Shown: positions 28,257-42,757 of the stretch, piece after piece
Numbering within the stretch: the first letter of the stretch is position 1
How the letters are laid out: each line of letters begins with the position of its first letter
The notes under the pieces: model-generated
What the model saw: the letters and a program-made list of their open reading frames with translations, nothing else
What the model was told of the DNA's origin: nothing
The model's database searches: none
Virus record (IMG/VR): IMGVR_UViG_2737471862_000003
Location: 1-44,719 of that record
Strand: one strand, 5' to 3'
From: a virus
Taxonomy: Duplodnaviria > Heunggongvirae > Uroviricota > Caudoviricetes
Length of the DNA: 44,719 bases
Program-made: the position numbers and the translations under genes

Positions 28257-28412
28257 AGGATGATCCTTTTTCTATGTGAATCATCACCACTGCTGACGCC
28301 AATCAGTATGGTGGTGAACTGTGCAGGGTTGGCGTAACCGGGAAAAAGGAACCGGCGCGGATCGCTCCGCCCCCACACAGCCCACCATTGAGATGTGACA
28401 GTGCAAACGACA

Positions 28413-28434
28413 ATAAAAAAGACGCTGGCGCGTC
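28413..28434 (-). terminator. tR'-like intrinsic terminator downstream of the late promoter
   Basis: GACGC-TGGC-GCGTC hairpin plus a T-run on the minus strand, about 60-70 nt downstream of the candidate late promoter. Coordinates approximate. Confidence 0.55.
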
Positions 28435-28495
28435 TGTTGTCGCCTTTTTCATCCGGGACGCCAATCCCGACGCCAGATTTTGCTGGCGCGTGAGG

Positions 28496-28525
28496 AATAT
28501 AGCCCCGGACAATGTGTCTGGTCAA
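28496..28525 (-). promoter_or_regulatory. candidate late promoter pR' (TTGACC-N18-TATATT) overlapping the Q stop
   Basis: The sigma70-like -35/-10 pair is read directly from the minus strand immediately 3' of Q. The position matches lambdoid pR'/qut. Confidence 0.45.
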
Positions 28526-31102: not shown

Positions 31103-31258
31103 TTACTCCTCAGATTCGTAAGCTGTGAAGACAGCGACCTCCGTCTGGCCGGTTCGGATTCGTACCTCGCAGAGGTCTTTCCTCGTTACCAGTGCCGTCA
31201 CTATGACGGTTAAACAGATGACGATCAGGGCGATTAACATCGCCTTTTGCTGCTTCAT
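31103..31258 (-). CDS. hok: Hok/Gef-family type I toxin
   Basis: MKQQKAMLIALIVICLTVIVTALVTRKDLCEVRIRTGQTEVAVFTAYESEE is essentially the HokD/RelF sequence. AAGGAG ribosome-binding site. Confidence 0.9.
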   Translation of the reverse strand: MKQQKAMLIALIVICLTVIVTALVTRKDLCEVRIRTGQTEVAVFTAYESEE

Positions 31259-31315
31259 AGCCTGCTTCTCCTTGCCTTTCGGCACGTAAGAGGCTAACCT
31301 AGATTTGCCGTTCAT
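31103..31315 (-). CDS. mok: Mok (modulator of killing) overlapping reading frame
   Basis: An in-frame N-terminal extension of 19 codons begins at an upstream ATG, as in hok/mok/sok loci. Confidence 0.6.
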   Translation of the reverse strand: MNGKSRLASYVPKGKEKQAMKQQKAMLIALIVICLTVIVTALVTRKDLCEVRIRTGQTEVAVFTAYESEE

Positions 31316-31360
31316 AGATTGAGCCTCAGATTAATGTTAAGCGTCTTGCCGGACGCGTAA
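31285..31360 (+). ncRNA. sok: predicted Sok-like antisense RNA (position inferred, not located)
   Basis: In hok/sok systems the antitoxin RNA is encoded antisense to the mok translation-initiation region. Here the position is inferred from that architecture only; no promoter or terminator was located. Confidence 0.25.
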
Positions 31361-31595
31361 TGTTAACTGGGGCTTTTCTCTGTCTGCCTTACAGTGGCAT
31401 GCCCGAGGCAGACAGCCTCAAGCACCCGCAACAATCTTACCGACACCGATAAGAAAACGCTATTTTTATTGCCAGAACCTTCTGCCCAGGCTAATGTATC
31501 CGCGTCAGAACGGCGCAATGCGCTCGCCTGAGATACGTTTACTTGTCATTGGTGGCAACAGATAACGGCAATTGTTGTTTCTGTTTGTTTCCTTC

Positions 31596-35087: not shown

Positions 35088-36308
35088 TTATCCCCTGAAC
35101 CCTGGTGGAATTTCGGTGTCCGGTTCAGAAATGTGATTCACACAACGCTGGTTGTTCGTGCCGCTTACCGGGAGCAACCAGGGGTTTTCAAAATTCCGGT
35201 CCGGTCCAAAAAACGTCGTCGCTCGCTGAACAAATTCCGTTCCCGCTTTCCCGGTCGCCGCCATGTATCTCGCGTAACGCCTCACACCATCCAGCATGGT
35301 CTCTGGTGACACCCCCTCGCGCAATCTGGCCTTCCAGGCACTGAATGCGGATTTCTTCGGGTTTGCCCCGGCACGCAACGGGTATTCCCGCCAGACCTGT
35401 TCGAACACATCCGGATAATCCACTCGTCCCACAGGCCGCCCGGTGTTTTCCGGGACTACCCGATCGGCTTCCCGCTGAATGGCGGAATCGGCTTCAGGCT
35501 GCTGCAGTTGGTGTGATTGCTCCGACCCTGCGGTCATCGCCTGCTGCACAGCGCCCGAATCGGCTTTCAGCGCATACGCCGAATCGGCTTCCGGTGTCGT
35601 GCCTGCTGGCTGACCAGAATTTACGGTCTGAACATCCCCTGCCTGGTTCATGGTGTTTTTTTCGCCATGAACCATAGTGTTTTTGTCCTGTTCCTGTTCT
35701 TTCTCCTGCTCCTGTTCTTGGCTTCGAAGCCCCTTAAAAGCCCCTTCGAAGCCCCTTACCGAATTTCGGCTATTATTCCGCCTCACATCCAGATGGAAAT
35801 CCGTTTTATATCTGTCGTAAAACGCTGACAGAAAAGCGTTTTCAGGTAATGATGCATACTCATTCCTGACACCTGCACAACGGTTATCGCCGGGCTTCAA
35901 CGTTTCCCCAACCTGCCAGGCTGCCATTTCATGGACCCAGACCATCTCTGCATCATGGTCATAGCTACAAAAACCAGCTTCAACAGCCCTTTTAAGCCCC
36001 TTTGAAGCCCCTTCCAGACCAAGCCCGGTTTCATGAGCAAGGTATAAAACTGGCAGGTAATACAAACCCAGCATATTTGCGTGAGGGGATGTCATCAGGT
36101 AAAAAGCAACAACTTGCGCTTCTGCACCCGCCTTTCTAAGTTCTCTCCCCGTTTCTCCCAGCCAGAATCGCGGAGAAACTTTTGCGTAATCACGCATGGC
36201 TACCTCATCTGGTGCCGAACCTTCCTCCGGATATAATCTGTGGTTCCCAATCGACAGAACCAGAGGAGGTTCGACATGTATTTTTTGAAAAGCCTTTATC
36301 AGGCTCAT
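35088..36308 (-). CDS. hypothetical 406 aa protein, candidate replication initiator (contains phased DNA direct repeats)
   Basis: Large ORF downstream of the cro/cII-like genes with an internal Glu/Gln-rich linker (SQEQEQEKEQEQDK). The DNA inside it carries iteron-like repeats. Confidence 0.5.
   Translation of the reverse strand: MSLIKAFQKIHVEPPLVLSIGNHRLYPEEGSAPDEVAMRDYAKVSPRFWLGETGRELRKAGAEAQVVAFYLMTSPHANMLGLYYLPVLYLAHETGLGLEGASKGLKRAVEAGFCSYDHDAEMVWVHEMAAWQVGETLKPGDNRCAGVRNEYASLPENAFLSAFYDRYKTDFHLDVRRNNSRNSVRGFEGAFKGLRSQEQEQEKEQEQDKNTMVHGEKNTMNQAGDVQTVNSGQPAGTTPEADSAYALKADSGAVQQAMTAGSEQSHQLQQPEADSAIQREADRVVPENTGRPVGRVDYPDVFEQVWREYPLRAGANPKKSAFSAWKARLREGVSPETMLDGVRRYARYMAATGKAGTEFVQRATTFFGPDRNFENPWLLPVSGTNNQRCVNHISEPDTEIPPGFRG
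35727..36013. repeat. five copies of AAGCCCCTT in two clusters with 11 bp phasing (iteron-like)
   Basis: Plus-strand copies at about 35727, 35738, 35749, 35994 and 36005. The copies fall in different reading frames, so the repeat is at DNA level rather than protein level. Confidence 0.6.
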
Positions 36309-36414
36309 GTATTAAATGTTGCAGCAACAAACCGCTGGTGTAACAGCCCCGAAATGCTCCCGGATTACAGAGCCTGGCTGCGCGCCGAAACATACCTTCG
36401 TCTCGACATATTGA

Positions 36415-36924
36415 TTAGCGAACTTCAAAAAGAGACTGCATCCATTCATAACCTTCAGGGTATCGACGCTGTTCGCATTCTGGTATCGCGCCATAGTGCT
36501 CTCTCAATAATTGAAGTGCGTCATCTCTCTTTTTCTGAACTGATTTTCTTGCTTCAACCAGCTCTGGAATCAGCGAATATCCCACCGGAAGTGATCCAAT
36601 ACCCACCTCATGTTGACGAGCAGTTACAAGATGTGCCATACAACCAGCGTGCTGGATTGACTCCCTGCTCAGAGGCTGAATGGGATCACTCTCTGCTGAA
36701 GAAATACCAAGATTTGTATAATCCTCAATAAGCCCGGCACACGCTTCTGCATCAGCCAGCTTTATTCTGGTTTCCTTGCGCTGTTCTCTGTCTGACAAAC
36801 GCCAGAGCAGCGCATTAGCTTTATGTATCAACCACTCTGCCAGCTCCACATCAGATAAACCGCCACGCCAGATGTGCGGACTGTTTTCGTAAACGCTCAG
36901 TGTCAATTTTTTGTCATTACTCAT
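36415..36924 (-). CDS. hypothetical 169 aa protein
   Basis: Start at the internal ATG (MSNDKKLTLSVYENSPHIWRGG...). No family recognised. Confidence 0.45.
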   Translation of the reverse strand: MSNDKKLTLSVYENSPHIWRGGLSDVELAEWLIHKANALLWRLSDREQRKETRIKLADAEACAGLIEDYTNLGISSAESDPIQPLSRESIQHAGCMAHLVTARQHEVGIGSLPVGYSLIPELVEARKSVQKKRDDALQLLREHYGAIPECEQRRYPEGYEWMQSLFEVR

Positions 36925-37622: not shown

Positions 37623-37652
37623 ACAACCTCCAGTTCAACTAACCACAACAAT

Positions 37653-37711
37653 TGTTCACTTAAAACGAACATAAGTCAACACCTCGAGGAATTGTTAGTG
37701 TTCACTGAACG
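37653..37711. promoter_or_regulatory. OR-like operator region: TGTTC-N9-GAACA inverted repeat plus a second TGTTCACT-containing site between divergent promoters
   Basis: TGTTCACTTAAAACGAACA at about 37653-37671 and TGTTCACTGAAC at about 37699-37710. TTGACT lies on the minus strand for the cro-like gene. Confidence 0.55.
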
Positions 37712-37719
37712 GTTATAAT
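37692..37719 (+). promoter_or_regulatory. pRM-like promoter (TTGTTA-N16-TATAAT) giving a near-leaderless repressor mRNA
   Basis: TATAAT ends 7 nt before the repressor ATG. Lambda cI is also leaderless from pRM. Confidence 0.5.
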
Positions 37720-37725
37720 TGCTAA

Positions 37726-38115
37726 ATGGACATGAGAAAAAAGCAATACGACACCCCGCTAGCAGAAAGGTTAGATGCGATCTCTCAACAGCATCATTTA
37801 AGTGGTTCAGATTTAGCGCGTATCGCTGGTGTAGGTCGTTCATCAGTCAACGCATGGAAAAAAAGAGGAACAATCAGTAAAGATTCCGCAGCCAAAATTG
37901 CAGAAGCCACAAACGTTTCCCTTTCTTGGCTACTGACAGGGAAAGAAGAGACAAATAGAGAAGCGCTTGATGATGACGAGAAGGCCCTGCTTGATGTTTA
38001 CAGAAACCTGCCACCTGTAGAACGTAGAAATATGCTGGCAGCTTTTCAAATGCGACTTCAAAAACTGACCGAATTTTACTCAGAATACGTCGACCCAATA
38101 ACACGACAAAAATAA
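37726..38115 (+). CDS. prophage repressor (CI-like, XRE helix-turn-helix, no peptidase domain)
   Basis: 129 aa with helix-turn-helix LSGSDLARIAGVGRSSVNAWKKRG, divergent from the cro-like gene and followed by a strong terminator. Confidence 0.8.
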   Translation: MDMRKKQYDTPLAERLDAISQQHHLSGSDLARIAGVGRSSVNAWKKRGTISKDSAAKIAEATNVSLSWLLTGKEETNREALDDDEKALLDVYRNLPPVERRNMLAAFQMRLQKLTEFYSEYVDPITRQK

Positions 38116-38137
38116 TTCTTTATTTTACAGAATCATA

Positions 38138-38159
38138 CCGCCGCAAGGCGGTTTTTTTT
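38138..38159 (+). terminator. strong intrinsic terminator after the repressor gene
   Basis: CCGCC-GCAA-GGCGG hairpin with a GNRA loop followed by eight T. Confidence 0.8.
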
Positions 38160-38180
38160 ACCTTTTACGTATTCATTATG

Positions 38181-38209
38181 TTGACTTTTGTTCACCTAGA
38201 GAGAACAAT
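38181..38209 (+). promoter_or_regulatory. pL-like promoter with overlapping operator (TTGACT ... TGTTC-N9-GAACA)
   Basis: TTGACTTTTGTTCACCTAGAGAGAACAAT has the same architecture as the minus-strand cro promoter (TTGACTTATGTTCGTTTTAAGTGAACAAT). Confidence 0.55.
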
Positions 38210-38283
38210 GTATTCCATCAAAGCACAACGGTGCGACAGGTCTTAGTTCCGCCACCCCGGCGTTAAGGGGAAATGAGGTCAGC

Positions 38284-38436
38284 ATGGATACTATCGATCT
38301 TGGCAACAACGAATCTCTGGTATACAGCGTGTTTCCCAACCAGGACGGCACATTCACCGCGATGACGTATACCAAAAGCAAAACGTTTAAAACCGAAACT
38401 GGCGCACGTCGCTGGTTAGCCAGAAATACTGACTGA
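38284..38436 (+). CDS. hypothetical 50 aa protein, first gene of the early-left operon
   Basis: ATG with a GAGG ribosome-binding site (MDTIDLGNNESLVYSVFPNQDGTFTAMTYTKSKTFKTETGARRWLARNTD). Not in the ORF track because it is under 60 aa. Its stop overlaps the next ORF. Confidence 0.55.
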   Translation: MDTIDLGNNESLVYSVFPNQDGTFTAMTYTKSKTFKTETGARRWLARNTD

Positions 38437-38444
38437 TGAGGTTA

Positions 38445-39080
38445 ATGATGGAATTTAAAGATTTACCGCTATCAATCCAGGAGATTGCAGCACACACACT
38501 ACGTCAACGTCTGAACGAAGCTATGGCTGAATCTGCAACGAAAGAAACCATTGATAACATGGCTCGTAATGTACACGATGCGTTTACCGGATTGTATTTC
38601 TGTGCGTCTGTAAATAAACACGACCCAGAGAGTGTGGCAAAGAAAATTGCAGAAACGACAGTGCAAAACATCAATACGAAACCAACCGAAGACGAAATTG
38701 ACCAGCCTGCCAGTGAACAAAAAAAAGAAAAATCGCCATATGCGGGAAACATGTTTGTTTATGACAAACTTATCCGAATTCGTGGCGAAATTCCGACTGA
38801 ATACCTGGCAAGAATTCACCAGACATTACTTAAAAATCTGGAAACGGAAGTATTTGATGGCAACACCAACGGTTCCTTCGTGGTATCAGCTCTCACAAAG
38901 GAGTGGGATAAAGATAATCGCTGGAATGTTGCTACATGGTTATTCAGCAACAAAGCTTCTGCCCTGGAAGCTGCGGCGTGTATTTGCGACCTGCTAAGGA
39001 CAGACCGCAAATACAACCTGGATGTGTATAGCTATATTTATGCTGAACACTATCCGCTATGGATTAACTTTAACTGGTAA
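38445..39080 (+). CDS. hypothetical 211 aa protein (AT-rich cargo in the early-left operon)
   Basis: ORF with a GAGG ribosome-binding site. GC content is lower than in the flanking phage genes. No family recognised. Confidence 0.6.
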   Translation: MMEFKDLPLSIQEIAAHTLRQRLNEAMAESATKETIDNMARNVHDAFTGLYFCASVNKHDPESVAKKIAETTVQNINTKPTEDEIDQPASEQKKEKSPYAGNMFVYDKLIRIRGEIPTEYLARIHQTLLKNLETEVFDGNTNGSFVVSALTKEWDKDNRWNVATWLFSNKASALEAAACICDLLRTDRKYNLDVYSYIYAEHYPLWINFNW

Positions 39081-39290
39081 TTACAAAGCTGTACCTGCAG
39101 GGCCACGACGACCAGCACCACGATTGTAATCAATGATGCCATTATAAAGCGCATTATTTAATTTATCGTCGAATGCCGATTCTGTGAGCCCTGGCTCTGA
39201 ATGAGTTTTTAATAACCCTGATTGCCTGAGTTGATTAACCAGGCATTCAATCTGTTTTTCAATAAGCGGATGTATTGGCTTGTTTGGCAT
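39081..39290 (-). CDS. hypothetical 69 aa protein, convergent with the 211 aa gene
   Basis: Internal ATG with a GGAGGA ribosome-binding site (MPNKPIHPLIEKQIECLVNQLRQSGLL...). No gap between the two convergent stop codons. Confidence 0.5.
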   Translation of the reverse strand: MPNKPIHPLIEKQIECLVNQLRQSGLLKTHSEPGLTESAFDDKLNNALYNGIIDYNRGAGRRGPAGTAL

Positions 39291-39684
39291 TTTATCCTCC
39301 ATTGAGGTTACTGGTTGAGAATGGAGACCACACGTGACAGCGTGTTGTCGTGCGCCGGACACGGATAAGAATCCGGCACTGATAGTTTATGAAAGGATAT
39401 ATCCCTGAAAAGTCAGGGCATAACACGGAAGCGCACGGCGGAGGTGTCTTTTCCTTAGAAGGCTTGTCGTTAGATTTCTTCGACCGTGCGCTTCCGGTTG
39501 TGGCACTCCGCGAAATGGCGCGGCGGTAAGTATGGCGGGGTTATTCCTTACCCCCATTGGTGGCACCGGGTTGTCAGGTTGACCATACGCCTGAGTGACA
39601 ACCCCGCTACAACACTCCATGTTGATTTGTACCTTTGGCGGCATCAGTTTCATTGCTGGCTGATGTCCGCCCTTTTTAAAGTGA

Positions 39685-39834
39685 ATTTTGTGATGCGGTG
39701 AATGCGGCTAAGCGCACGCGGAACAGTTAAAAGCGTATTAAAGCATCTGTGTTATGGGTGGATTCTCTGTATCCGGCGTTAATTGTTAACTGGTTAACGT
39801 CACCTGGAGGCACCAGGCACCGCATCACAAAATT
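39685..39834. repeat. 16 bp perfect inverted repeat (ATTTTGTGATGCGGTG / CACCGCATCACAAAAT) flanking about 118 bp
   Basis: Read directly from the sequence. Lies in a 560 bp region with no convincing ORF that also holds a 13 bp inverted repeat (CGGAAGCGCACGG / CCGTGCGCTTCCG, about 39426-39496). Confidence 0.7.
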
Positions 39835-39853: not shown

Positions 39854-40042
39854 ATGGAAACATTATTACCAAACGTTAATACGTCTGAAGGTTGTTTTGA
39901 AATTGGTGTCAGTATCAGTAACCCTGCATTTACTGAAGATGCCATTAATAAGAGAAAACACGAACGGGAGTTATTAAATCAAATATGCATTGTTTCAATG
40001 CTGGCCCGTTTACGTCTGATGCAAAAAGGATACTGGCAATGA
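39854..40042 (+). CDS. hypothetical 62 aa protein
   Basis: ATG with a GAGGA ribosome-binding site. Translationally coupled (ATGA) to the next gene. Confidence 0.5.
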   Translation: METLLPNVNTSEGCFEIGVSISNPAFTEDAINKRKHERELLNQICIVSMLARLRLMQKGYWQ

Positions 40043-40230
40043 ATACAGCATTCGCACTCGTTCTGACAGTTTTTCTTAATACAGGCGAACCACTTGACCT
40101 TATTGTTGATATACGTGACTCAATGGAAGAATGCATGGCTGCCGCAGATGAACAGAAAATTCCCGGTAACTGTTATCCGGTCGATAAAGTTATTCGCATG
40201 AATAATAACGAAGTCCCGGCAGGGCTTTAA
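40039..40230 (+). CDS. hypothetical 63 aa protein with N-terminal hydrophobic (signal/transmembrane-like) segment
   Basis: MNTAFALVLTVFLNTGEPLDL..., with an AAGGA ribosome-binding site. Confidence 0.5.
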   Translation: MNTAFALVLTVFLNTGEPLDLIVDIRDSMEECMAAADEQKIPGNCYPVDKVIRMNNNEVPAGL

Positions 40231-40321: not shown

Positions 40322-42757
40322 ATGAGCACTGATAAAGAAGAAATTGCACTATATTACGAAGCCAAAAATGACAAAGTCAGAAAACGTCTTGGGATTAAAG
40401 GCGGTTTTTACTGGCGCACAGCAAAAAAATTATCGGTTGCAATATCACGCGGTGTTGTCGCAATGGACGATGCCGGATTTGACGAAGAGGATTTTAAAAA
40501 ACCTGTTCGCGTCCATTTACCCGTTGTGAATGACCTTCCTCCGGAAGGCGTGTTTGATATCGAATTCTGCAACCGATACGAAAAAGGCGGGGAAGATGGT
40601 ATCACAATGGTACTTATCGCGCCCTCGCCCTCTGTTCAGGATAAACCAGCCAGCACTGACAATACCAACGTCAACGGCGAAGACATGGCTGAGATTGAGG
40701 AGAACATGCTCCTGCCGGTTTCAGGTCAGATTCTGCCTGTTCGATGGCTGGCACAGCACGGCAGCGAAAAACCGATCACACACGTTTCGCGGGACGAACT
40801 GCGCGCATTACATAACGCACAGGATGAAAAACTTCCCGCCGTTACCGCGCTGGCTATCTCAAATAAAGCAGCGCAACTCGAACCGCTGGAGATTCGCGAT
40901 CTCCACAAACTGGTGCGAGACACTGACAAAGTTTTCCCCGCCCCCGTAAATTCGGACCTGGGACTGATAACCTCTTTTATCGAAGCATACCTGGACGCCG
41001 ACTACACCGATCGCGGTCTGCTGACAAAAGAGTGGATGAAAGGAAATCGTGTTTCGCGTATCACCCGTACGGCTTCCGGTGCAAATGCCGGTGGCGGGAA
41101 CAAAACCGATCGCAATCCGAATTTAGTACACACCTTCGATACGCTGGATGTGGAGATTGCAGCAGCCACACTTCCGATGGATTTTAATATTTATGAAATT
41201 CCGGGCAGCGTTTATCGTCGCGCAAAAGAAATCGTCCTGAAAAGAGAAAGTCCGTTCAAAGAATGGTCCGCAGCACTTCGCGCAACCCCGGGTATTCTGG
41301 ATTATTCCCGCGCCGCTATTTTTGCACTTATCCGGAGCGCTCACCCTGAGTTTTATCACTACCCGGGACGCCTTCAGGGGTATATCAACGCCCACTTAAC
41401 GGAGACTGATCACGAGAACCCCAGCAAGGAAACTCTCACTGCTGCACGACATACACCGGAAAAAGACATCCTGGAAGAAGTTAACCGCGAACTGGCTGCT
41501 GAACGCGAAACAGAAGAAGAAAAAAATAATGAGGAAAAATCACAACCGTCTGACGCAATGGCAGATGAACAGGCAACGACTGAAGCAATGGGACAGGATA
41601 CAACTGAATATCGCCAGGACACACAATCGCTGGATACTCAGGCACAGATAAATCCGGTTAATCAGGTAAAAGTTACCGCTGACGAAGTAAACAAAATTAT
41701 GCAGGCAGCCAATATCAACCAGCCTGATGCCGACAAAATACTGGCAGTCCATCGCGGTGAATTCGTTGACGGAATTAGCGACCCGAATGATCCGAAATGG
41801 GTTAAGGGGATTGAAACCCGCAATTCTGTGAACCAGAACCAGCCCGAATCGGAACAAAACAGCCAAAATGCGTTACAAAACGAGCCAGAAACGAAACAGC
41901 CTGAACCAGAAGAGCAACAAGAACCGGAAAAAGTCTGCACCGCCTGCGGTCAGACCGGCGGCGACAACTGTCCTGACTGTGGCGCGGTGATGGGCGACGC
42001 AACATACCAGGAAACATTCGATGAAAAAAATCAGGCTGAAGTTCAGGAAGATGATCCGGAGGAAATGGAAGGCGCTGAACATCCACACAAGGAGAACACT
42101 GGCGGCAATCAGCATCACAATAGCGATAATGAAACTGGCGAGACGGCAGATCACTCAATTAAGGTGAACGGTCATCACGAAATCACATCCACCAGCAGGA
42201 CGTGTGACCATCTAATGATCGACCTTGAAACCATGGGAAAAAATCCTGATGCCCCGATCATCTCAATAGGTGCAATATTTTTCGATCCGCAAACCGGAGA
42301 TATGGGACCGGAATTTAGTAAGACTATCGATCTGGAAACTGCTGGCGGAGTCATTGATCGGGACACCATTAAATGGTGGCTTAAGCAATCACGCGAAGCG
42401 CAATCTGCCATTATGACCGATGAAATCCCGTTAGATGATGCACTACTGCAATTGCGGGAATTTATCGACGAAAACTCCGGTGAATTTTTTGTTCAGGTCT
42501 GGGGTAATGGGGCCAACTTCGACAACGTGATTTTACGCCGTTCATACGAACGACAGGGTATCCCCTGCCCGTGGCGCTACTGCAACGATCGCGATGTACG
42601 CACAATCGTTGAGCTGGGGAAAGCCATAGACTTCGATGCCAGAACTGCTATCCCATTCGAAGGTGAGCGCCATAATGCACTTGATGACGCTCGTTACCAG
42701 GCAAAATACGTTTCAGCTATCTGGCAAAAACTGATCCCGAGTCAGGCTGATTTTTAA
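40322..42757 (+). CDS. large early protein with C-terminal DEDDh (DnaQ-like) 3'-5' exonuclease domain
   Basis: 811 aa. The C-terminal 184 aa contain DLET (Exo I), WGNGANFD (Exo II) and H-x4-D (HNALDDARY, Exo III) motifs. Upstream are an acidic Glu/Gln/Asn-rich linker and a C-x2-C-x9-C-x2-C zinc ribbon. It occupies the recE position next to xis/int. Confidence 0.75.
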   Translation: MSTDKEEIALYYEAKNDKVRKRLGIKGGFYWRTAKKLSVAISRGVVAMDDAGFDEEDFKKPVRVHLPVVNDLPPEGVFDIEFCNRYEKGGEDGITMVLIAPSPSVQDKPASTDNTNVNGEDMAEIEENMLLPVSGQILPVRWLAQHGSEKPITHVSRDELRALHNAQDEKLPAVTALAISNKAAQLEPLEIRDLHKLVRDTDKVFPAPVNSDLGLITSFIEAYLDADYTDRGLLTKEWMKGNRVSRITRTASGANAGGGNKTDRNPNLVHTFDTLDVEIAAATLPMDFNIYEIPGSVYRRAKEIVLKRESPFKEWSAALRATPGILDYSRAAIFALIRSAHPEFYHYPGRLQGYINAHLTETDHENPSKETLTAARHTPEKDILEEVNRELAAERETEEEKNNEEKSQPSDAMADEQATTEAMGQDTTEYRQDTQSLDTQAQINPVNQVKVTADEVNKIMQAANINQPDADKILAVHRGEFVDGISDPNDPKWVKGIETRNSVNQNQPESEQNSQNALQNEPETKQPEPEEQQEPEKVCTACGQTGGDNCPDCGAVMGDATYQETFDEKNQAEVQEDDPEEMEGAEHPHKENTGGNQHHNSDNETGETADHSIKVNGHHEITSTSRTCDHLMIDLETMGKNPDAPIISIGAIFFDPQTGDMGPEFSKTIDLETAGGVIDRDTIKWWLKQSREAQSAIMTDEIPLDDALLQLREFIDENSGEFFVQVWGNGANFDNVILRRSYERQGIPCPWRYCNDRDVRTIVELGKAIDFDARTAIPFEGERHNALDDARYQAKYVSAIWQKLIPSQADF

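Follow-up and report, generated by a model that had tools for sequence, protein, structure and literature searches.

The dicB/DicF operon is among the best-studied sets of prophage genes that reshape Escherichia coli, with effects on cell division, sugar metabolism, phage resistance and the virulence of enterohaemorrhagic strains. The Qin prophage of strain K-12 expresses this operon from the promoter dicBp, under repression by DicA, as a polycistronic ydfABC-dicF-dicB-ydfD transcript from which RNase III and RNase E release DicF (PMC10448788). DicB, encoded by the same operon type, is known to confer protection against certain phages (PMC6832061). The early-left region of the Rac prophage is arranged in the order racR, ydaG, ydaF (DUF1391), convergent sieB, the small RNA (sRNA) kilS, kilR, recE and recT. 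Here, we analysed positions 38181-39290 of the tailed-phage record IMGVR_UViG_2737471862_000003 from IMG/VR, the full 44,719 nucleotides (nt) of which are referred to as the window, and in particular two adjoining open reading frames (ORFs) named ORF210 and ORF69. The window was 100% identical to the prophage adjoining potC in E. coli OkiPb01716 (chromosome NZ_AP042701.1).

Judging by alignment with Qin, the early-left operon that begins in 38181-39290 belongs to a Qin/Rac-like lambdoid prophage of E. coli and is of the dicB (dicBF) type, because the two operons differ only at the repressor/operator region and in a central cassette. An earlier note on this DNA had overlooked that the operon, to go by the same comparison, is of this known type. 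The order is promoter/operator, ydfA, variable cassette, structured DicF precursor RNA, dicB, ydfD, RecE-like exonuclease gene, xis and int. The ydfA homologue (38284..38436, + strand; 50 amino acids (aa), DUF1391, Pfam E = 3.5e-27) and its 5' untranslated region from ~38245 share >90% nucleotide identity with K-12 Qin ydfA. Homology to Qin resumes at ~39302/39345, again with >90% identity, across the DicF leader, dicF and dicB. Between these two blocks, K-12 Qin carries ydfB and ydfC, whereas the window carries ORF210 and the convergent ORF69. A gene also called ydfA in the IbfA paper lies on a plasmid and is unrelated.

Downstream of the cassette, all on the + strand, we found a DicF-like sRNA with its terminator (39624..39677; Rfam 38.7 bits, E = 2e-6, against a gathering score of 48), dicB (39854..40042; 62 aa, Pfam DicB E = 2.4e-38), a ydfD homologue (40039..40230; 63 aa, DUF1482, Pfam E = 1.8e-20) and a gene for an 811-aa RecE-like exonuclease (40322..42757) with an Exonuc_VIII N-terminal region and an Rv2179c-like domain, followed by xis and int. 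Gene order and much of the DNA are thus common to the window and the Qin dicBF/dicA-dicC region, which also has its promoter downstream of the repressor gene and an exonuclease gene (ydfE) after ydfD. In contrast to Qin, the window has a repressor (129 aa) and an operator (TGTTC-N9-GAACA) of different specificity, and its exonuclease, xis and int genes are intact. Similar to Rac, a DUF1391 gene stands near the operon start with a convergent gene of overlapping 3' end directly after it, and then an sRNA, a cell-division inhibitor and RecE. Unlike the membrane protein SieB, ORF69 is a soluble protein of 69 aa to which SieB is unrelated, and Rac has neither a member of the ORF210 family nor the DicF leader. 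The operon architecture is known biology, and the window is an instance of it in which the immunity specificity differs and the cassette is uncharacterised.

The early-left promoter (TTGACT-N17-AACAAT, 38181..38209, + strand; hexamers at 38181-38186 and 38204-38209) is, by alignment, the positional and partly also the sequence homologue of Qin dicBp. As the earlier note had pointed out, its architecture recurs in the PR-like promoter upstream of the cro-like gene (TTGACT-N17-AACAAT, 37679 to 37651, - strand): both lytic promoters have the same hexamers, the same 17-nt spacing and an exact palindrome TGTTC-N9-GAACA, with the gene for the 129-aa repressor between them. The early-left copy of the palindrome (38189-38207) fills the 17-nt spacer and overlaps the -10 element, and the cro-side copy (37653-37671) lies inside its promoter (37651..37679). 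The exact palindrome occurs twice in 44.7 kb, both times at these promoters, and 4 matches with at most one mismatch were found in the window compared to 1.7 expected from shuffles. Since this operator architecture is shared with the cro-side promoter, the early-left promoter is very probably repressor-controlled in the manner of lambda pL. The earlier proposal to this effect is further strengthened by the homology to dicBp.

Degenerate operator copies accompany the exact ones. One lies beside the cro-side promoter (37632-37650), a weak one beside the early-left promoter (at 38209), and one with 2 mismatches (37693-37711) covers the -35 element of the PRM-like repressor promoter (TTGTTA-N16-TATAAT, 37692..37719, + strand). 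The repressor gene (37726..38115, + strand) encodes a helix-turn-helix protein (Phage_CI_repr/HTH_3) that resembles DicA yet reached only 37 bits against the DicA family cut-off of 101, and is thus a sub-threshold match. Profile searches of the repressor did not find an S24 peptidase or RecA-cleavage domain. Its induction is probably antirepressor-dependent, as for DicA and Rem in Qin. The repressor transcript is predicted to end at a strong intrinsic terminator consisting of ACCGCCGCAAGGCGGT followed by T8 (38137..38160, + strand; hairpin 38137-38152). As this terminator and then an operator-overlapped promoter precede ydfA and ORF210, the two genes would be silent in lysogens and made on induction. 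On the other side of the repressor gene, profile searches identified YdaS/Cro-like and YdaT/CII-like genes.

From a comparison of related loci, ORF210 and ORF69 are together one allele of a hypervariable cargo slot, the left arm of which is ydfA and the right arm the DicF leader RNA. We fetched 80 IMG/VR loci using YdfA as a handle, 67 of which hold both ydfA and the DicF leader. These 67 loci contain at least 20 cassette types of 448-1413 bp, with the K-12 type present 15 times and the window type 12 times. Most types start with a protein that has the first ~50-57 residues of ORF210 (MEFKDLPxxIQxIAA...RNVRDAFxGLY) and then continues into an unrelated C-terminus, giving N-module proteins of 52 to 201 aa overall. 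Counting in the ORF lists, we noted a minus-strand ORF beside the right junction in at least 14 types. At this junction (39291..39345), the minus-strand ribosome-binding site and the upstream sequence ccTCAATGGAGGATAAAATG are common to several unrelated convergent ORFs of other cassettes. A single C-terminal type (loci L013, L014 and L029) is accompanied by different convergent genes or none, which suggests that the two sub-slots reassort in general.

The same layout is found with other genes in the functional phages mEp460 (a 121-aa protein and a convergent 66-aa gene) and Evi (a 135-aa protein and a convergent 77-aa gene, then kil). Another E. coli prophage cassette holds ydfB, then ORF212 and then ORF69. 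The hypervariable slot between ydfA and the DicF precursor appears not to have been described before. Ten convergent proteins of other cassettes received no Pfam or PADLOC assignment, with none above noise (six were run against PADLOC). A convergent protein of ~165 aa with a coiled coil and a cysteine-rich (CxxC) C-terminus recurred in eight loci (L012, L018, L021, L022, L038, L056, L058 and L086) and had no Pfam or PADLOC match. Another convergent allele (L014 and L045) encodes a 148-aa hydrophobic protein with a weak SLATT-like match (E = 0.025).

The three ORFs reported earlier for this segment, of 50, 211 and 69 aa with the last one convergent and abutting the stop codon of the second, were all present. 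For the second of these, ORF210 (38448..39080, + strand; PHROG 2151, phrog_2151 E = 2e-111 over 2-208), the candidate starts are 38436, 38445 and 38448. The last of these, and hence a protein of 210 aa, is supported by its distance from the ribosome-binding site and by PGAP, which annotates both ORF210 and ORF69 in NZ_AP042701.1. The protein comprises a helical N-module (residues 1-~57), an acidic disordered linker (~58-95) and a C-terminal alpha/beta domain (~96-210). The C-domain is under purifying selection, with a median ratio of nonsynonymous to synonymous substitution rates (dN/dS) of 0.20. The low GC content that had been remarked upon is real relative to the window (42.2% vs 51.1%) but does not set the gene apart from its neighbours, namely the repressor gene (43.1%), ORF69 (41.9%), dicB (36.5%) and ydfD (42.2%). 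As these are equally AT-rich, low GC is a trait of the whole immunity/early-left region.

The first two genes of the operon also lack antiterminator features, as stated before. Neither YdfA nor ORF210 matched the lambda N family, the only Pfam family found being DUF1391, in a search that did not extend to nut sites. Only 3 of the 50 residues of YdfA are Arg, and the isoelectric point (pI) of ORF210 is 5.3, that of an acidic protein. Hydropathy analysis predicted ORF210 to be soluble without a transmembrane segment and ruled out the idea of a membrane protein for ORF210 and ORF69 alike.

The homology and structure searches that the earlier note had recommended gave a divided answer. The 50-aa gene, thought to be of unknown function, is ydfA (DUF1391), whereas the 210-aa and 69-aa proteins indeed belong to no known family beyond PHROGs. 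ORF210, its two domains separately, ORF69 and the Salmonella homologues described below yielded nothing meaningful in Pfam (to E 10), NCBIfam, PADLOC and PDB sequence searches, and no helix-turn-helix or other DNA-binding domain was found in the window ORF210 with Pfam. AlphaFold2 with a 15-sequence alignment modelled ORF210 at a predicted local distance difference test score (pLDDT) of 52. With the Salmonella homologues added, it gave a confident model of the C-domain as a beta-beta-alpha-beta-beta-alpha-beta sandwich (pLDDT ~80-92 except for one loop).

In a HMMER search, only 58 of 1.84 billion representative proteins matched, all of them of enterobacterial prophage type, and among these the N-module is fused to many different C-termini. 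Among 50,697 isolated-phage records, none encodes the C-domain and only relatives of the N-module were found. For the N-module in genome collections, a single 59-aa query gave no locus confirmed by tblastn, its alignment being too variable to serve as a query. Literature searches with accessions and the name ybl81 found no publication mentioning ORF210 or ORF69. An A8 run is located at 38719-38726 in the ORF210 linker, just before the C-domain. One locus (L011) is near-identical to the window but frameshifted at this run to an N-module-only protein of 105 aa, which could reflect a sequencing error, decay or slippage.

ORF69 (39081..39290, - strand; 69 aa, PHROG 4274, phrog_4274 E = 1.1e-40 over 1-69) has a stop codon that starts one base past that of ORF210 and a GGAGG ribosome-binding site. 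It is under purifying selection (median dN/dS 0.235), with a conserved C-terminal tail RRxPAGxxL, and is predicted to be a soluble protein (pI 7.9) without a transmembrane segment. Its convergent position and orientation are those of sieB in Rac. Because it corresponds in position to Rac sieB and belongs to the many small genes that replace one another at this point, ORF69 is most likely a prophage-state gene. Its role may possibly be exclusion, or the damping of read-through into the toxic dicF/dicB/ydfD genes by convergent transcription.

ORF210 and ORF69 are both real protein-coding genes that are almost always inherited together. In a set of 5,426 complete E. coli genomes, 600 contained C-domain DNA, at 751 places in total, and 597 contained ORF69 DNA, at 744 places, so that the cassette is present in 11% of these genomes, O157:H7 included. 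ORF69 without the C-domain was seen in none of 90 loci. Two loci (L012 and L018) have an intact ORF210-type gene of 211-215 aa and an internally deleted ORF69, with the coiled-coil/CxxC convergent gene present. This tight linkage also appears to be previously undescribed.

Further relatives of the pair were found in prophages of Salmonella whose int, C and cox module is P2-like. Homologues of the C-domain, 38-41% identical, follow directly after cox. Their N-terminus differs from that of ORF210, and in one variant (P0174) the N- and C-modules are separated by an HTH_3 domain. A convergent ORF of 64-69 aa, overlapping the C-domain gene by 11 nt, shares 45-56% identity with ORF69, including the motif SGLLKT...NR...RRxPAGxxL. 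The convergent overlapping pair is kept in three diverged Salmonella variants. Since the block also includes a homologue of the DicF leader with a DicF-like terminator hairpin, conservation of the pair may reflect inheritance of the whole early operon. The loci concerned (L006-L009 and L093-L095, Salmonella/enterobacterial) are hybrid prophages that combine a P2/186-like int, C repressor and cox with a lambdoid-type early operon; the latter consists of the ORF210-C homologue, the ORF69 homologue, a DicF-like leader, an Rv2179c-like exonuclease and ExoVIII.

The right arm of the slot is a conserved structured RNA upstream of DicF (39405..39625, + strand). This GC-rich leader of ~220 nt shows ~78% nucleotide identity between E. 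coli and Salmonella and is thus more conserved than the flanking protein genes, whose products are only 38-56% identical. RNAalifold with 32 variants predicted a long hairpin and a multi-branched domain with 47 pairs, 5 of them with compensatory changes. Because the G-U/G-C alternations fit the + strand only, we read the leader as a + strand RNA. The alternatives of a minus-strand gene or of a 5' leader RNA of ORF69 were rejected for the same reason and because the known long DicF species matches: the leader coincides with the region of this 190-nt species generated by RNase III. No Rfam family matched the leader. Its conservation suggests a role beyond that of a processing site.

The DicF of the window has a 5' end 8 nt shorter than that of K-12 DicF and also a different hairpin loop. 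At least three DicF variants occur among related loci, and their target range may be altered. Between dicF and dicB (39684-39831, + strand), Rfam reported an STnc100 match of 38.2 bits, below the gathering score of 47, in a stretch nearly identical in K-12.

Taken as a whole, we favour the reading, with a rough probability of 0.55, of a dicB-type operon with a repressor-shut cassette in which ORF210 is an early accessory protein and ORF69 a prophage-state gene. The repressor would bind TGTTC-N9-GAACA and shut both divergent lytic promoters, and its own transcript would be isolated by its terminator. Upon derepression or infection, an early-left RNA would extend across ydfA, ORF210, the antisense strand of ORF69, the DicF precursor, dicB, ydfD and the exonuclease gene. 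With lower confidence, we propose that ORF210 is a soluble, acidic and non-essential early accessory protein. It would join a family-wide N-terminal helical module to an allele-specific, ACT/ferredoxin-like C-terminal module and would most likely bind a component of the host or of a rival phage early in lytic growth. ORF69 would have a separate promoter on the minus strand, located in the leader or the conserved right junction. Its transcription would converge on the early-left transcript, such that ORF69 expression and read-through into dicF/dicB would oppose each other.

Two observations weigh against this proposal. We found no convincing minus-strand promoter for ORF69, the best candidate being TTTTCA-16-TAAACT (39411 to 39384) with 8/12 positions. 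Moreover, the two genes are linked almost perfectly and have stayed together in Salmonella, which is more in keeping with a functional pair than with two separate pieces of cargo.

Such a pair might consist of an effector and its cognate inhibitor, an explanation that is the main rival but that we consider unlikely. The C-domain of ORF210 would then be harmful during early lytic growth, and ORF69 made in the lysogen would bind and neutralise leaky or incoming effector, or the antisense transcript would silence it. The ~99% linkage across the 5,426 E. coli genomes and the lack of ORF69 without a C-domain in the 90 loci agree with this idea. The same holds for the convergent 11-nt overlap kept in three Salmonella variants, including the one with the helix-turn-helix insertion, and for the abutting stops, which make each mRNA antisense to the 3' end of the other. 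However, the 211-215-aa gene stays intact in the two loci where ORF69 is internally deleted and another convergent gene is near, the convergent partner of other N-module proteins varies within one C-terminal type (L013, L014 and L029), and the Salmonella synteny reaches as far as the DicF-like leader. Furthermore, no toxin-like fold or motif was found in the pair, and the convergent orientation is atypical for toxin-antitoxin modules. Compared with a type II toxin-antitoxin module, the two genes show strict co-occurrence but neither a co-directional operon nor a toxin or antitoxin family or fold.

An architectural analogy, and only that, exists with the polymorphic toxin/immunity cassettes CdiA-CT/CdiI and Rhs, in which the C-terminal domain is exchanged behind a constant N-terminal part together with a neighbouring small gene, and whose conserved flanks can act as recombination arms. 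In contrast to these, the small gene of the window is convergent rather than co-directional, other C-terminal types reassort with different small genes, and for the window pair we found no evidence of toxicity and neither a toxin domain nor a secretion signal. It is rather improbable that an early-lytic C-domain effector, placed by a swappable cassette after an N-terminal adaptor common to the family, and an opposite-strand ORF69 inhibitor that confers self-immunity on the lysogen form an undescribed two-component prophage system in competition among related temperate phages or in abortive infection, with the slot an unrecognised lambdoid-prophage hotspot of dozens of unknown early effectors and prophage-state genes.

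The earlier note had compared the segment to superinfection-exclusion or abortive-infection cargo of the rexAB/sieB kind, which would be expressed in the lysogen such that 38284-39290 protects it. We consider this doubtful for the segment as a whole. The lambda rexAB and Salmonella BTP1 bstA genes likewise stand where the repressor gene gives way to the early-left genes, in a mosaic region known as a hotspot for such genes. They lie downstream of the repressor gene, apparently on its promoter, and are hence made in lysogens (PMC8585504). Convergent sieB stands at the equivalent point in Rac, the slot is as hypervariable as defence hotspots, and protection against some phages is known for DicB of the same operon type (PMC6832061). 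In the window, by contrast, a terminator and an operator-overlapped promoter intervene, behind which ydfA and ORF210 should be off in lysogens. Searches of ORF210 and ORF69 against PADLOC, Pfam and NCBIfam gave no significant match to RexA, RexB, SieB, BstA or catalogued defence proteins, and neither sequence or fold similarity to rexAB/bstA products nor membrane segments were found. The ten alternative convergent proteins likewise stayed within noise on defence models. The proposed cargo role was thus not borne out for the segment, but ORF69 alone could have a prophage-expressed exclusion role.

It is very unlikely that ORF210 regulates the early programme of the phage itself, at the level of lysis-lysogeny or transcription, with the C-domain as an oligomerisation or ligand-sensing module. 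This idea draws on the Salmonella homologues, which directly follow the Cox/Apl gene where phage 186 has cII in its apl-cII region, and on the HTH_3 domain of variant P0174. The window protein, however, is without a DNA-binding domain, and its gene is missing from most related operons and therefore dispensable. Homology to 186 CII was looked for and rejected (BLASTP E = 1.8; hhalign probability 0.05; no helix-turn-helix). Finally, the reading of ORF69 as a chance open frame antisense to the operon, prompted by its shortness, its lack of a family outside PHROGs and of a clear promoter, is effectively refuted by its dN/dS, the 45-56% identity and conserved motifs in Salmonella, the strong GGAGG site, the PHROG 4274 match and the PGAP annotation.

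Together, the comparisons show a hypervariable cargo slot in the dicB/DicF operon, with ydfA on one side and the DicF precursor on the other. ORF210 and ORF69, which occur in 11% of complete E. coli genomes, carry no annotation beyond hypothetical and have no recognisable fold. Should the plus-strand genes of the slot prove to be early effectors and those on the minus strand prophage-state genes, new proteins for phage-host or phage-phage interactions could be drawn from it in a compact form that is easy to clone.

Several other features of the prophage were recorded. The C-terminal domain of the 811-aa exonuclease is of the Rv2179c-like 3'-5' exoribonuclease type, and a recT-like gene is absent after it, xis and int coming next in the matching record. 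Around 36276-36731 (+ strand), an ECs1072-family phage-associated gene lies antisense in the replication-gene region; in the RefSeq record of the identical sequence, PGAP calls it a pseudogene interrupted by a stop codon. Rfam matches on the - strand include the IS009 RNA (41-239), a C4 antisense RNA with its a1/b1 target and isrK (28307-28502), and a sok antitoxin RNA beside a hok-type gene (31253-31427).

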